Positions 16,560 through 21,376 of a stretch of 64,000 bases of DNA are shown in pieces (position 1 is the stretch's first letter; the number at the start of each line of letters is the position of its first letter). Both the position numbers and the translations under genes were made by a program. Under the pieces are notes generated by a model. That model was given only the letters and a program-made list of their open reading frames with translations. It searched no databases and was not told where the DNA came from. The stretch is from Candidatus Oxydemutator sp. (GTDB lineage Bacteria > Pseudomonadota > Gammaproteobacteria > Poriferisulfidales > Oxydemutatoraceae), in the NCBI GenBank assembly GCA_965203445.1, contig OZ241883.1, positions 1,216,001-1,280,000 of the forward strand. Reading direction: 5' to 3'.

Positions 16560-17133
16560 CTGCGGTGCGCAGCCGGCTGCGCCGAGGGAAGTGCGCCTTC
16601 AGGAACTCCATCTGGTCGGCCAGCACGGTGCGCGCCTGTAGATAGACGTATTCGGCGTGGGTCGGCACGAACGGCACCGCCAGCAGTTTCAGGCCGGCCT
16701 GTTCCGGTGTGCGCCCCGCCTTGTGGTTGTTGCAGCGCTTGCAGGCGGTTACGACGTTGCTCCACTTGTCCTCGCCGCCCTGGTGAAACGGCACGACGTG
16801 ATCGCGCGACAGATCGCGGCGTTGGAAGCGTTCGCCGCAGTACATGCACAGGAAGGCGTCGCGGCGGAACAGCGTCAGGTTGTTCAGCGGCGGCACGTAT
16901 TCCAGCCCGAGGCGCGGATTTTTGCCGTAGGTGGCGATGATCGAGTCCACGACGATCACGCTGCGCCGCCCGGACGCGGCGTTGACGCCGCCGCGAATTC
17001 TGAACAACTGCGCGCCGGCGCTGTAGGCGACCTCGCCCAGGTAGTAGAAGCGCACGGCGTCCTGGTAGCCGATCCAGTCGAGCGGCATGCCGGATACGTC
17101 CACCCGCAGGATTTTCTGGCTGAAGTTGTTCAT
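16543..17133 (-). CDS. HNH endonuclease family protein
   Basis: LFRRDAFLCMYCG, RDHVVP, NVVTACKRCNNHK. Confidence 0.88.
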   Translation of the reverse strand: MNNFSQKILRVDVSGMPLDWIGYQDAVRFYYLGEVAYSAGAQLFRIRGGVNAASGRRSVIVVDSIIATYGKNPRLGLEYVPPLNNLTLFRRDAFLCMYCGERFQRRDLSRDHVVPFHQGGEDKWSNVVTACKRCNNHKAGRTPEQAGLKLLAVPFVPTHAEYVYLQARTVLADQMEFLKAHFPRRSRLRTADEPPQ

Positions 17134-17549
17134 CGCTTCGCTGGATTTGTCGCTCGGAATGGCGCAATTCAAACGGAATTATACACAAACGCGCTACAAA
17201 TCCGGCCCATGGCTCCCTCGCCGTTGGTCGCTCCTTGCCGCACAAGCGGGAATCCGGCAAAAACCGGCGGCACTGGCGGCATCGTCGCCACTGCATTTGT
17301 AGGGGTTTTGCCGGGCGGTCGGGCGGACGCATCGGGTTGTCCTGTCAGCGGATGTATAATGTTTGGGACTTATATACAAAAATGCACCGAAAGCGCTTGA
17401 GAACCATATAAGGCAAAGGGTTTGATAGGATTGACTTTATGCGGTGCTTGCGCCCCGTGACCCGGGGGGCGTCGCCGCCATTTCAAGGGAAACGGCAGTG
17501 AACAAGCAACCGCCCGCTTTTGTTCCGCTGGTTCGGGGAATACTCCGAC

Positions 17550-17576
17550 TGGATTCCCGCTGGCGTGGGAATGGCA
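17550..17576. repeat. REP-like palindrome (GGATTCCCGC...GGGAATG type)
   Basis: TGGATTCCCGCTGGCGTGGGAATGGCA. A partial related copy GCGGGAATCC lies at ~17246. Confidence 0.55.
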
Positions 17577-17772
17577 GATCGGTATCTGTCTGATTTCATT
17601 CCTTTTTTCTTGGGCGTTTTTATCCTGGTTACAATGTGTCCAATCGGGCGAAACGGCGGGCGTGGTTGCCTGCGGAAGCATTAGTGACAAATTTCCCACA
17701 AATTTTTCCACAGAAATTGTGGGTAATTTTTGGGAATTATGTATCAAAATCTACAGAATGACCGTGAAGTAA

Positions 17773-17800
17773 TTGAATTTACATAGAAATATGATATAAT
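17773..17800 (+). promoter_or_regulatory. Sigma70 promoter of tnpB, probably near-leaderless
   Basis: TTGAAT-16 nt-TATAAT with an extended TG. The ATG follows 10 nt later with no Shine-Dalgarno sequence. Confidence 0.6.
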
Positions 17801-17810
17801 TCATTCTAAT

Positions 17811-19082
17811 ATGAAGGTATATAGGACTATCCGCTACAGGCTGCATCCGGGCACGCAAGCCAAAGCCCGCAAGTTGGCGGGTTTGGCGGGGGCGTGCAGA
17901 TTTGTGTGGAATCATTTTGTGGGGAAGTTACGGGACGAGTATCTGGCGTACGGGGGATGCCGGCCATGGTATTACACGTTAGGCAAGCAATTTACTTTGT
18001 TACGGCGTTATTGTGAATCCTGGCTACAGGAATACTCGGCGAACATAGTAAAGAGTTCTTTGAAACCCATAGAGACTGCGTACAAGAAGTTCTATGACAA
18101 GAAGGGCGGGTTGCCCAGGTTCCATGCTTATGGAATACATCAAGAGAGTTTTCCTCTTGTGCCCGGCCGGTTTCGTATAAGAAGGCGCCATCTGCATATA
18201 GAGAAGATGGGTGAGTTTCTGTTGTTTGGTCGTAATCCATATCCGGATGCAAAGCCCGCGTCGGGTACAGTCAAAAGGGAATGCGGGAATTGGTATGCGT
18301 ATGTGGTTTATGCCGTGGAACAGAAAGAGATTAAACGGGAGTACAATTCAGTGGGCATAGACAGGAATGTAGGTCAGGTAACGTGCTCTGATGGAATTGT
18401 ATATCGAATGCCTGATACTACTCGATTAGATGCGCGTAAGCGTCGCCATCAACGTATGGTGGCAAGACGTAAGTGTGGCAGTAGAAAGCACAAGGTAAAG
18501 CCTTCTAACAGGTACTTGCGGGCAAAGCATTTACATGCAGTAGTCAGTAGGAAGATAAAGCAGAAAAGGAATAATTGGTGTCATCATGTAAGTAATGAGA
18601 TAGCAGAGAATTATTCTGTAGTACATTTGGAGGATTTGAATACAAAGGGGATGACAAGGAGTGCCAAGGGCACAAAAGAAAGACTAGGTAAGAATGTAAA
18701 ACAGAAGTCTGGGTTGAATAAGGGGATACTGAATACGAACTGGTATAAGTTTGAGCAATTTTTGGGTTACAAGACCCAAGTGAATTATGTGCCCGCCAAG
18801 GACACGAGTCGTGCGTGTAACAAGTGTGGTCATACGGAAAAGAAAAACAGAGTATCGCAATCAGTATTTGTTTGTGTTGATTGTGGTCATCGGGATAATG
18901 CTGATCTTCAATCATCGTATAACATACATGAGTATGGAGATTATCTATTAGAATATAAGGCCTCCGGGAATGGGGCAACTGGACGTGGAGATGGCGGTAA
19001 GACCCTGAAGGAATTATTGACCGACAGGGCACGGTCTGTGAAGCGTCAAATGGGTACCAACAACCTACGGAATCCTCTGTAG
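17811..19082 (+). CDS. tnpB: RNA-guided endonuclease TnpB family protein
   Basis: N-terminal YRLHP...GACRFVWN, RuvC-I VGIDRN, RuvC-II LEDL, KQKSGLNKGI, Zn finger CNKC/CVDC, RuvC-III NAD...NI. The stop codon lies inside the right TIR. Confidence 0.95.
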   Translation: MKVYRTIRYRLHPGTQAKARKLAGLAGACRFVWNHFVGKLRDEYLAYGGCRPWYYTLGKQFTLLRRYCESWLQEYSANIVKSSLKPIETAYKKFYDKKGGLPRFHAYGIHQESFPLVPGRFRIRRRHLHIEKMGEFLLFGRNPYPDAKPASGTVKRECGNWYAYVVYAVEQKEIKREYNSVGIDRNVGQVTCSDGIVYRMPDTTRLDARKRRHQRMVARRKCGSRKHKVKPSNRYLRAKHLHAVVSRKIKQKRNNWCHHVSNEIAENYSVVHLEDLNTKGMTRSAKGTKERLGKNVKQKSGLNKGILNTNWYKFEQFLGYKTQVNYVPAKDTSRACNKCGHTEKKNRVSQSVFVCVDCGHRDNADLQSSYNIHEYGDYLLEYKASGNGATGRGDGGKTLKELLTDRARSVKRQMGTNNLRNPL

Positions 19083-19121
19083 ATTTTGATACATAATTCC
19101 CTAATTTTTGCCGCACGTCGC
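18955..19121 (+). ncRNA. Putative omegaRNA (scaffold plus flank-derived guide); boundaries approximate
   Basis: Overlaps the tnpB 3' end. GACGTGGAG...TGTGAAGCGTC and GGAATCC motifs parallel common TnpB omegaRNA scaffolds. Predicted hairpins and a GGGAAT/ATTCCC pseudoknot. Confidence 0.6.
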
Positions 19122-19198
19122 CCGTTTGGTGTCGTTCGTCGGAAACTGCGACGACGGTGCGACTGCCACCGCCGCGGCCGAGGGCGCGCTCCCGACCA

Positions 19199-21376
19199 AT
19201 GCCCTCTCCGCTGATCCTGCGGGTCGCAATTCCGTCGGCCTTGCCGAAGTGTCTCGACTACCTCGCGCCGACGCCCGCGCCGTCGCCAGGAGTGCGAGTG
19301 TCGGTGCCGCTGGGGTCGCGCTCGGCAGTCGGCGTCGTCGTCGAGGTGCCGCGCGAGACGCGCGTGGCGCACGCATTGCTGAAACCGGTCGAGCGCGTCG
19401 TTGACGAATCCCCCGTCGTTTCGGCGAGACTGCTCGAATTGTTGCAGTGGAGCGCGCGCTATTACCACCAGCCGCTAGGCGGCGTGTTGCGCGCGGCGTT
19501 GCCGACGTTGGCGCGACGCGGCGCGGCGTTGCGGATTCCGCGCGTCGTGACCTGGGAAGGCGCGCCCGGCCGCGACGAGCCGCCGGCCGCCGCCGTCAGG
19601 CAGAAGGCGCTGCTCGCGCTGCTTCGGGATCGGGGGCGCCACGATGAGGATGCGCTGAACCGCCGCTTTCCGGGCTGGCGTCCGGTGATGCGGCGCCTGC
19701 TCGACAGAGGGCTTGCCGTCCGGCGCGAGGAAGCGATGGCCGGCAAACCGCCGTCGCGGCGCCCCCATCCGCTCAACCGCGAGCAGGCGGCGACGGTCGA
19801 GTCGGTGGCCGCGGACTTCGGGCGGTTCCGCCGCTGCCTGCTCGAGGGCGTAACCGGCAGCGGCAAGACCGAGGTCTATCTGGCGTTGTGCGCGCAGGCG
19901 CTGGAGAGGGGCGAGCAGGCGCTGGTGTTGGTGCCGGAGATCGCGCTGACGCCGCAGACGGTCGAGCGCTTTCGCGCGCAGCTGGGAAGTGCGGTGTGCG
20001 CGTACCATTCGAGGCTGAGCGAGCGCGAACGTTTCCAGTGCTTCAGCGCGGCGCGCGCCGGCGCCGCCGCCGTCGTCATCGGCACGCGCTCCGCGGTGTT
20101 CCTGCCGTTTCGGCGGCTTGCGCTGATCGTCGTGGACGAGGAGCACGACGCCTCGTACAAGCAGCACGACTCGTCTTTTCGTTACCACGCCAGAGACGTT
20201 GCGATCAAGCGCGCCCAGCTTTGCAAGCTGCCGATCGTGCTCGGCAGTGCGACGCCGTCTCTCGAGTCGCTGCGCAACGCGGCGGGCGGCCGCTACGAGC
20301 ACCACCGCCTGGCGCGTCGCGCCGCCGGCGCCGCGCCGCCGCTGTGGCGGGTGCTCGACCTGCGCGGCGCGCGCCTTGACGGCGGCTTGTCGCCCGCGCT
20401 GGTCGCGGCCATGCGCGAACGTCTGGCAAGGCGCCGCCAGGTGCTGCTGTTTTTGAATCGGCGCGGTTACGCGCCGGTCACGTTGTGCCGCGATTGCGGC
20501 GCCGCGCCGTCGTGCACGCGCTGCGACGCGCGTCTCGTGTACCATCTGCGCGAGCACCTGCTGCGCTGCCACCATTGCGGCCTGTCGCTGCGCCCCCCCG
20601 ACGCCTGCGCCGACTGCGGCGGCGAGTTGCGGCTGGTCGGCCTCGGCACCGAAAAGATCGAAGAGAAACTGCGGCAGTTGTTTCCCGATGCCGGCATTGT
20701 GCGCGTGGACGCCGACGCGGTGCGGCGCAAGAACGAATTGCAGCACCGCCTTACGCTCATTCGCCGCGGCGACGCCGACGTCGTGCTCGGGACGCAGATA
20801 TTGGCGAAAGGGCATCATTTTCCGGCGATCACGCTGGTCGGCGTCGTGCACGTGGATCAGAGCCTTTTCGCGCCCGACTTCCGCGCGCTCGAACGCTTCG
20901 GCCAACTGGTAACGCAGGTCGGCGGGCGCGCCGGGCGCGGTGCGGACGCGGGCGAGGTCATGTTGCAGACCCACCACCCCGACCACCCGCTGCTGCAAAC
21001 GCTGTTGAAGAGCGGTTACGCCGCGTTCGCGTCGCAACTGCTCGCGCAGCGCGAGGTTGCCGGACTGCCGCCGTACCGCCACCTTGCCGTCGTACGCGCG
21101 CAATCAAGCGTCGCCGGCGAGGCCATCGCCGTGCTCGACCGCGCCCACCGATTCTCGCGCGACATGGCCGCGCGAGAATCGGTGCACATCTACGAACCAG
21201 TGCCGATGATGATGGAGAAAAAGGCCGGCGCCTACCGCGCGCAACTGTTGCTGAGCGCCGGCCGTGCGCGCGCCTTGCACGCCTGCCTGTCGGCCTTGCT
21301 GCCCGAAGTGCGCAAGCTCGCGCGATCGCGCAAACTGCGCTGGCACGTGGACGTGGATCCCTTGGAGGTGGTGTGA
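19199..21376 (+). CDS. priA: Primosomal protein N' helicase
   Basis: GVTGSGKTEVY, VDEEHD, LNRRGY, Zn-finger CxxC pairs, QVGGRAGR, terminal DVDPLEV. Confidence 0.97.
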   Translation: MPSPLILRVAIPSALPKCLDYLAPTPAPSPGVRVSVPLGSRSAVGVVVEVPRETRVAHALLKPVERVVDESPVVSARLLELLQWSARYYHQPLGGVLRAALPTLARRGAALRIPRVVTWEGAPGRDEPPAAAVRQKALLALLRDRGRHDEDALNRRFPGWRPVMRRLLDRGLAVRREEAMAGKPPSRRPHPLNREQAATVESVAADFGRFRRCLLEGVTGSGKTEVYLALCAQALERGEQALVLVPEIALTPQTVERFRAQLGSAVCAYHSRLSERERFQCFSAARAGAAAVVIGTRSAVFLPFRRLALIVVDEEHDASYKQHDSSFRYHARDVAIKRAQLCKLPIVLGSATPSLESLRNAAGGRYEHHRLARRAAGAAPPLWRVLDLRGARLDGGLSPALVAAMRERLARRRQVLLFLNRRGYAPVTLCRDCGAAPSCTRCDARLVYHLREHLLRCHHCGLSLRPPDACADCGGELRLVGLGTEKIEEKLRQLFPDAGIVRVDADAVRRKNELQHRLTLIRRGDADVVLGTQILAKGHHFPAITLVGVVHVDQSLFAPDFRALERFGQLVTQVGGRAGRGADAGEVMLQTHHPDHPLLQTLLKSGYAAFASQLLAQREVAGLPPYRHLAVVRAQSSVAGEAIAVLDRAHRFSRDMAARESVHIYEPVPMMMEKKAGAYRAQLLLSAGRARALHACLSALLPEVRKLARSRKLRWHVDVDPLEVV

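Follow-up and report, generated by a model that had tools for sequence, protein, structure and literature searches.

TnpB, from which Cas12 descends and which serves as a compact nuclease for genome editing, is credited with restoring an IS605 or IS607 element that has been scarlessly excised, a role not obviously applicable to DDE transposons. According to a published discussion, bacterial TnpBs associate only with IS200/605 and IS607 (PMC10711439). Here we describe a TnpB element of another build in Candidatus (Ca.) Oxydemutator sp., found in a 64,000-nt stretch of contig OZ241883.1 (positions 1,216,001 to 1,280,000, forward strand); this whole stretch is called the window, and all positions are counted from its first base. 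The element (17732–19101) is discrete, measures 1370 bp and contains tnpB as its sole gene, with no transposase inside; every quoted string was verified at its position. Its last 145 bases (18957–19101) are probably the omegaRNA, or right-end element RNA (reRNA), scaffold of tnpB, in which the right terminal inverted repeat would form one stem and one strand of a pseudoknot. In order, the predicted scaffold comprises a hairpin P1, a helix P2 enclosing a variable hairpin P3, a hairpin P4 on the inner part of the repeat, and a pseudoknot between the P1 loop and the repeat tip. The end recognised by the transposase would double as RNA structure.

The RNA of ISDra2, an IS200/IS605 element, overlaps tnpB at the gene's 3′ end, has its terminus at the right boundary of the transposon and contains a pseudoknot (PMC10711439). 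The reRNA of the IS607 element ISXfa1 has three stem-loops, a scaffold boundary adapted to the transposase, and a pseudoknot at distances similar to those found here, proven by compensatory mutation: U-130A is rescued by A-3U (PMC10711439). As described in the same paper, published omegaRNAs pair an apical loop with roughly five bases that precede the guide; the initial annotation had taken this as established, and correctly so. Neither IS200/IS605 nor IS607 elements have inverted ends or duplications according to a 2026 review, which defines the former by subterminal hairpins and insertion 3′ of a fixed 4–5 nt motif, and describes movement of ISDra2 by a Y1 transposase through single-strand “peel and paste” (PMC13565253). 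ISXfa1 relies on a serine recombinase, lacks both inverted ends and a duplication, and recruits one flanking base to its scaffold. In contrast, the window element is bounded by 26-nt terminal inverted repeats (left, GGGAATTATGTATCAAAATCTACAGA, 17732–17757, plus strand; right, 19076–19101, minus strand; 26 of 26 positions complementary) and flanked by an identical 8-bp target duplication, TAATTTTT, at 17724–17731 and 19102–19109, while its DDE transposase partner is encoded elsewhere. Membership in IS200/IS605 (the IS1341 group with solo tnpB) and in IS607 was therefore rejected. IS607 is further marked by ends in GG and a serine recombinase.

Fanzor1 and Fanzor2* of cut-and-paste transposons resemble the window element in that these nuclease genes lie in non-autonomous inverted-end elements with a duplication, and their scaffold is predicted to include the repeat (PMC10711439). 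However, they are eukaryotic or viral, their duplication is counted as scaffold, and the pseudoknot is lost in Fanzor1, whereas the window element has a bacterial host, appears to retain a pseudoknot formed from the repeat tip, and most likely starts its guide with the duplication. Prokaryotic TnpBs within inverted terminal repeats were reported as DDE-associated branches by Altae-Tran et al. (2023, PNAS), where the TnpB 3′ end lies less than 250 bp from the transposon end and solo TnpBs have ends resembling those of transposase-bearing copies; six branches are distinguished and IS630 is named (PMC10691335). The 2026 review lists ISL2, IS630 and IS1031 as TnpB partners and calls the association rare in prokaryotes (PMC13565253). 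The term IS1595 is absent from the main texts of both papers, and the IS1595-linked clade described below may already be one of the branches DDE-1 to DDE-6. The passages of PMC10691335 consulted give no scaffold structure or repeat/pseudoknot pairing, and the literature found by a full-text search for TnpB with IS1595, judged by titles and abstract openings, apparently contains nothing on this link. TnpB in DDE transposons and inverted repeats in Fanzor scaffolds are thus already published; the new details are the pairing of the repeat tip as a pseudoknot strand, the subfamily-matched last stem and the asymmetry of the insertion flanks.

Like the window element, IS1595-family elements with passenger genes have inverted ends that open with GGGAAnTAT, are flanked by an 8-bp duplication and house the passengers within these ends; unlike them, the window element lacks a transposase, and its passenger is a TnpB whose RNA would use the end itself. 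The genome (2.38 Mb, one contig) encodes exactly one DDE_Tnp_IS1595 domain, located within a 2616-bp element (G000:C1:1978350-1980965) that has an 8-bp duplication and a repeat, GGGAATTATATACTTAAATCTACAAA, identical to that of the window element at 21 of 26 bases. Its transposase matches NF033547 (IS1595 family transposase) with 205.9 bits (cut-off 75) and also carries the IS1595 zinc ribbon. The inverted repeats and the 8-bp duplication that mark the family are both present in the window element, and in 35 unique elements at least 7 of the 8 duplication bases are identical; a DDE_Tnp_IS1595 transposase of its own is absent. Since it has no transposase and one with matching ends sits elsewhere in the genome, the window element is, judged from sequence, non-autonomous and of IS1595 type, carrying TnpB as its passenger; the one IS1595 transposase that the genome encodes presumably mobilises it in trans. 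Its ends would also fit the ISNwi1 group, for which ISfinder gives ends “ggnnatTAT” and an 8-bp repeat. The 2616-bp copy (L096:451-3066), the only autonomous IS1595 element of the genome, carries a passenger of its own, a 436-aa N6/N4 DNA methylase fused to an HNH endonuclease domain.

This genome contains at least 12 TnpB elements whose ends begin with GGGAAYTAYATA and whose 8-bp duplications are AT-rich; by inner repeat, they divide into several subfamilies. Scanning one genome per species at the protein level yielded 80 further loci, mostly metagenome-assembled, from Gammaproteobacteria (Ca. Porisulfidus, Ca. Poriferihabitans, Arenicellales and others), Chloroflexota, Thermodesulfobacteriota, Rhodothermota, Bacteroidota, Ca. 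Dadabacteria and Spirochaetia. Under strict criteria, GGG...CCC inverted ends and a duplication were found at 34 of the 80. The 46 loci failing these criteria enter no count; inspected by eye, 31 of them have the P1–P2 module and vary in the pseudoknot over the same range, 14 are without P1 and one is spurious. All resolvable members of the TnpB clade (12 here, 34 of the 80 elsewhere and six further) have GGG...CCC ends and an 8-bp duplication. A quick tree was built from 46 rows, after six of these 52 elements with open frames below 380 aa had been dropped; L047 and L063 are among the absent rows. No IS1595 transposase lies within 1.5 kb at any of the 80 loci, and an arrangement with TnpB and transposase in one shared element was rejected, as tblastn of the transposase against these loci gave no match. 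IS1595 transposases do occur elsewhere in all five other TnpB-element genomes tested, with 1 to 28 matches each. Eight autonomous IS1595 copies have GGGAnTTATATA-type ends and 8-bp duplications.

The last 104–152 nt of 46 elements (12 from this genome and 34 others; 44 distinct rows) were aligned, and in all 46 a conserved module starts 104–152 nt before the element end, overlapping the tnpB open frame. The RNAalifold consensus contains two helices, P1 (18960–18964/18972–18976) and P2 (18982–18986/19043–19047), both on the plus strand like the rest of the scaffold. P1 (18960–18976) has the stem GCCUC/GGGGC and the loop CGGGAAU (18965–18971). The initial annotation had quoted this hairpin, and it covaries: 97.7% of cells are paired in the 44 rows, and three of the five pairs are changed on both sides, with pair types including C-G/G-C, U-G/C-G/G-C and C-G/U-G/U-A (GCCUC/GGGGC versus GCGGU/ACCGC and GCCCU/AGGGC). 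P2 pairs GACGU (18982–18986) with GCGUC (19043–19047). Proposed earlier as GACG (18982–18985) with CGTC (19044–19047), it is upheld by pair counting, with 97.3% of cells paired; at the first pair, 32 rows have G-C and 12 have C-G, and at the fifth, 17 have U-G, 15 G-C and 4 U-A. P1, P2 and the pseudoknot are jointly 95.3% paired versus 85.9 ± 0.7% after shuffling, and 54 cells are changed on both sides versus 17.9 expected; neither value was reached in 500 shuffles, a test that overstates support here because the sequences are related. When the partner columns are slid by 1–3, pairing is at most 59.1%. P1 and P2 carry compensatory substitutions that are not silent at the protein level (e.g., GACG/CGUC versus CACG/CGUG), so coding constraint does not explain this covariation.

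P3 (18989–19037) is a hairpin of variable length for which pair counts suggest a basal stem AGAU/GUCU (18989–18992/19034–19037) and an inner stem CCCUG/CAGGG (19003–19007/19025–19029). It is about 36 nt shorter in many relatives, and the inner CCCTG/CAGGG is retained in the long-form copies. The basal stem AGACC/GGTCT, drawn here at first, is probably wrong: it is paired in 53.0% of cells across the alignment, versus 77.3% for AGAU/GUCU. In the copies e25458 and e2133905 AGACC/GGTCT is broken and AGAU/GUCU is retained through an A-U to G-C change; two sister subfamilies retain AGRY/GYCU where AGACC/GGTCT breaks.

The alignment is poor at the P3 and P4 columns, and P4 was therefore tested by folding each sequence separately. 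P4 (19054–19092) consists of a 5′ arm at 19054–19071 (GTACCAACAACCTACGGA), a loop at 19072–19075 and a 3′ arm at 19076–19092 (TCTGTAGATTTTGATAC), the latter being the inner 17 nt of the right repeat. A fold-back of 19054–19071 onto the right repeat had been predicted from the window alone; it forms there (−8.5 kcal/mol, 15 of 17 inner-repeat bases paired) and across the family. The mean energy is −9.7 kcal/mol at the right end versus −3.7 at the mirrored left end, and the right end is lower in 42 of 46 elements, two rows with a faulty anchor being scored 0; the hairpin is thus confined to the TnpB-distal end. The inner repeat varies by subfamily, and each subfamily has its own matching upstream arm: compared with arms taken from other subfamilies, the own arm gives a mean z of −2.4, and in 15 of 42 cases every swapped arm folds less well. 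In 34 of 42 cases folding is stronger for the sense than for the antisense strand (−10.3 versus −8.0; Wilcoxon p = 4.7e-4), and the sense strand contains 79 G-U pairs versus 26. Because of this better folding and the excess of G-U pairs, the strand bias points to selection acting on an RNA of the TnpB strand and not on a DNA palindrome. P1, P2 and P4 thus appear to be conserved stems with comparative support, as in omegaRNA/reRNA scaffolds.

P4, and perhaps the pseudoknot, could instead serve the transposon or its transcription, as a terminator or read-through barrier, or as a regulator of transposase access to the end, or could be the remnant of a very small inverted-repeat element joined to tnpB on its 3′ side. 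The window P4 was indeed scored as terminator-like (CTACGGAATCCTCTGTAG followed by ATTTTGATAC), but in most subfamilies P4 is followed by GUAUAUAAUUCCC and not by a U-tract. A relic origin is conceivable, since the P4 5′ arm resembles positions 10–26 of the left repeat; such an origin would, however, be compatible with present use as scaffold. A comparable hairpin on one inner repeat is found in two of eight autonomous IS1595 relatives (L096, −8.3 kcal/mol; L109, −9.4), but it is weak or absent in the other six, and P4 as a generic IS1595 feature was rejected. The autonomous copy of this genome has no P1–P2 module. Moreover, P4 always stands directly behind P1–P2, where known omegaRNAs have their last stem. 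We consider a purely transposon-related or transcriptional role unlikely, though it fares slightly better than the alternatives discussed below, and prefer P4 as the last stem of the scaffold.

The pseudoknot would join GGGAAU in the P1 loop (18966–18971, 136 to 131 nt before the element end) with AUUCCC (19096–19101), the six bases that form the tip of the right repeat and close the element. This complementarity between the loop GGGAAT and the terminal ATTCCC, pointed out in the initial annotation, is present in the window and recurs in relatives with a few compensatory changes: 91.7% of cells are paired versus 88.0 ± 0.9% after shuffling (0 of 500 shuffles reach this value), and 9 cells are changed on both sides versus 2.7 expected. 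Position 5 is A-U in 25 rows, C-G in 5, G-C in 2, U-G in 1 and unpaired in 11; position 6 is U-A in 37, C-G in 1 and unpaired in 6. In the copy e895601 the loop (GGGAAC) and the right tip (GUUCCC; GTTCCC in DNA) are both changed, and its own left tip and the sister copies keep T. GGGAGU with ACUCCC is another natural variant of loop and tip. The two tips differ in 21 of the 46 elements, and among these the loop matches the right tip in 15, the left in two and neither in four. Much of this agreement is the right tip being the more conserved end, and that conservation fits a second constraint on the right end. The predicted geometry (−136 to −131 with −6 to −1) matches published cases, including ISDra2 and ISXfa1. 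Taken from these comparisons, the pseudoknot is likely and moderately supported.

Several observations weigh against the scaffold and its pseudoknot. The position-5 mismatches, in 11 of 44 rows, lie mainly in one or two clades where GGGAUU faces AUUCCC, and six rows are mismatched at position 6. The covariation check on homologous elements, suggested together with the first prediction, came out positive for P1 and P2; for the pseudoknot it did so at only two of six pairs, a count reached by 40 of 500 shuffles, while the core pairs GGGA/UCCC are nearly invariant and carry no covariation signal. This core is also constrained by the transposase and by Gly-Asn codons. GGGAAT occurs four times on the plus strand of the element (17732, 18277, 18285 and 18966), so in this single sequence the match between loop and terminus is possibly due to chance. 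Folded alone, 18900–19101 gives z = −1.37, with 19 of 200 shuffles as good, and an Rfam search of 17000–20000 (E up to 1) returned two chance-level matches and no omegaRNA family. As for P4, the window hairpin is modest (−8.5 versus −6.2 on average for swapped arms, 4 of 38 swaps doing as well), L053, L062, L064, L073 and L078 have no own-arm advantage, and the autonomous IS1595 end of this genome (L096) also folds onto its inner repeat.

Part of this evidence would suit a reading without any functional RNA structure, in which conservation reflects the tnpB C-terminal coding sequence and the transposase-recognised repeat, and the complementarities are by-products, GGGAAT being Gly-Asn codons. 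The repeated GGGAAT, the single-sequence z-score and the invariant pseudoknot core all speak for it, as does the open frame that runs through the whole scaffold: the tnpB stop codon, TAG (19080–19082) inside the right repeat of the window element, is in 30 of 52 elements the TAA of TATAATTCCC, 5 nt from the element end and overlapping the pseudoknot strand. However, the P1/P2 compensatory changes alter encoded residues, the P4 arms are wholly different between subfamilies and still complementary, G-U pairs are enriched on the sense strand, and the loop tracks the right tip and not the left. We therefore regard such by-products as improbable. The clade-wide ends, the matched P4 arms and the tracking of the right tip by the loop lend support to the earlier suggestion that the repeat has been built into the scaffold in a stable association and not by chance nesting.

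The insertion flanks hint at where the guide of this scaffold might begin. The flanks were tallied for 41 independent insertions whose two duplication copies agree at 7 or more of the 8 bases. Immediately ahead of the left duplication stand 28 G, 11 A, two T and no C, whereas at the mirror position, following the right duplication, only three insertions have C (Fisher p = 1e-8; binomial p = 1.6e-8 versus a background G of 0.26). A symmetric preference of the transposase is insufficient as an explanation, since it would not give such an asymmetry. Of 12 autonomous elements, a small set whose genomes differ in composition, two have G at the pre-duplication position. Insertion into terminator T-tracts was rejected as the general cause of the G, as duplications are not T-biased on the TnpB strand. 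The G or A found before the duplication in 39 of 41 cases resembles a target-adjacent motif (TAM), the short sequence that TnpB requires next to its target, located 5′ of a guide that starts in the duplication; in the window the candidate TAM, proposed from this flank bias, is GTGGG (17719–17723, plus strand), and the putative guide, made of duplication and flank, would occupy 19102–19117 on the plus strand if a length of 16 nt is assumed by analogy with ISDra2.

We hypothesize that the tnpB transcript is processed to an RNA ending in the flank, with the guide starting at the target duplication (19102 onward), and that TnpB would cut an empty site bearing a purine-ending motif just left of the duplication sequence. 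At the occupied site, the pre-duplication position is taken by the terminal C of the repeat, a base that none of the flanks has there; as this C precedes the same sequence, the occupied site would be spared. The placement proposed for Fanzor, in which a genuine TnpB scaffold would include the 8-bp duplication and the guide would start at 19110, draws on Fanzor RNAs that extend about 15 nt past the duplication, repeat and duplication being predicted as scaffold (PMC10711439), but it appears improbable here, as the duplication varies in sequence and hence offers no conserved piece of scaffold, the orientation-specific G is placed ahead of the duplication and not inside it, and the occupied site would carry the same motif and target and hence be cut.

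Combining these points, we tentatively propose, with somewhat less than even confidence, that this TnpB clade has been refitted to IS1595 DDE transposons: the repeat tip became a pseudoknot strand and the inner repeat the last stem, the guide is read from the duplication next to a purine-ending TAM, the C protects the occupied site, the elements are mobilised in trans, and the clade has spread over at least six apparently sponge-associated phyla. The clade is found in 19 of 53 genomes of the host's order, with up to 16 copies each. It is patchy in that order, yet common to at least six other phyla, and assembly names suggest a common sponge habitat. Because of this combination of patchiness within the order and sharing across phyla, the distribution points to horizontal spread of the clade. 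In a metagenome scan, 7 of 80 loci were at least 32% identical, and none had a clean pair of ends by the criteria used. An empty-site joint across the element was not found in DNA contigs of one sample (two runs), where both occupied-site junctions were covered.

If the proposal holds, RNA-guided homing or retention would also benefit DDE transposons in bacteria. The clade would then offer a compact, many-copy system for following the adaptation of a scaffold to a new transposon end, with one 26-nt sequence serving both the transposase and the RNA fold. It could also be useful for defining the guide start next to a variable 8-bp duplication and for reading TAMs from insertion flanks, and it would supply small, diverged TnpB/scaffold pairs with natural compensatory variants.

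The nuclease itself (tnpB, 17811–19082, plus strand; 423 aa, intact) matches the NCBIfam model NF040570 (guided_TnpB) with 181.3 bits (cut-off 100) and contains the Pfam domains Cas12f1-like_TNB, HTH_OrfB_IS605 and OrfB_IS605; PF07282 (47.8) and PF12323 (31.3) score above their cut-offs, and PF01385 (29.2) falls just under its cut-off of 30.5. The IS200_TnpB and IS607_TnpB models remain below cut-off (140.7 bits versus 425 and 69.9 bits versus 350, respectively). A phmmer alignment of residues 9–373 to ISDra2 TnpB (8bf8_A) places GIDRN, LEDLN and RDNAD opposite its RuvC D, E and D. The zinc-finger cysteines (CNKCGH and CVDCGH; CxxC...CxxC) are also present, and from its sequence the protein looks catalytically intact. 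This genome has 13 full-length TnpB copies, with 58–83% identity to the window copy. Upstream of tnpB, a promoter-like TTGAAT-16-TATAAT (17773–17800, plus strand) is a consensus match only, 3 such sites being found versus 3.5 expected. The G+C content of the element is about 0.43 versus about 0.68 for the host.

Shortened relatives are present in the same genome. A 786-bp deletion derivative (G000:C1:247602-248387; L095:503-1288), with repeats identical to those of the window element, retains only the C-terminal 229 codons together with the complete scaffold, in which the P4 loop is about 34 nt longer, and could be an RNA-only rider on TnpB made elsewhere. A 163-bp miniature element (G000:C1:113341-113503) belongs to the same repeat family, differing by 2 and 4 mismatches. 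At G000:C1:2003452-2003520, 69 bp of a left end (93% identity) survive on their own as a remnant.

The insertion point of the window element is the T-tract of a terminator-like hairpin (17707–17723; TCCACAGAAATTGTGGG, then TAATTTTT) 55 nt upstream of priA. As priA (19157) now starts 55 nt downstream of the element, the insertion may separate this upstream terminator from the gene. About 160 nt upstream of the element, three GGGAAT/ATTCCC motifs are clustered within 40 nt of host intergenic DNA (17536–17572), which may be due to chance or mark an old end remnant.

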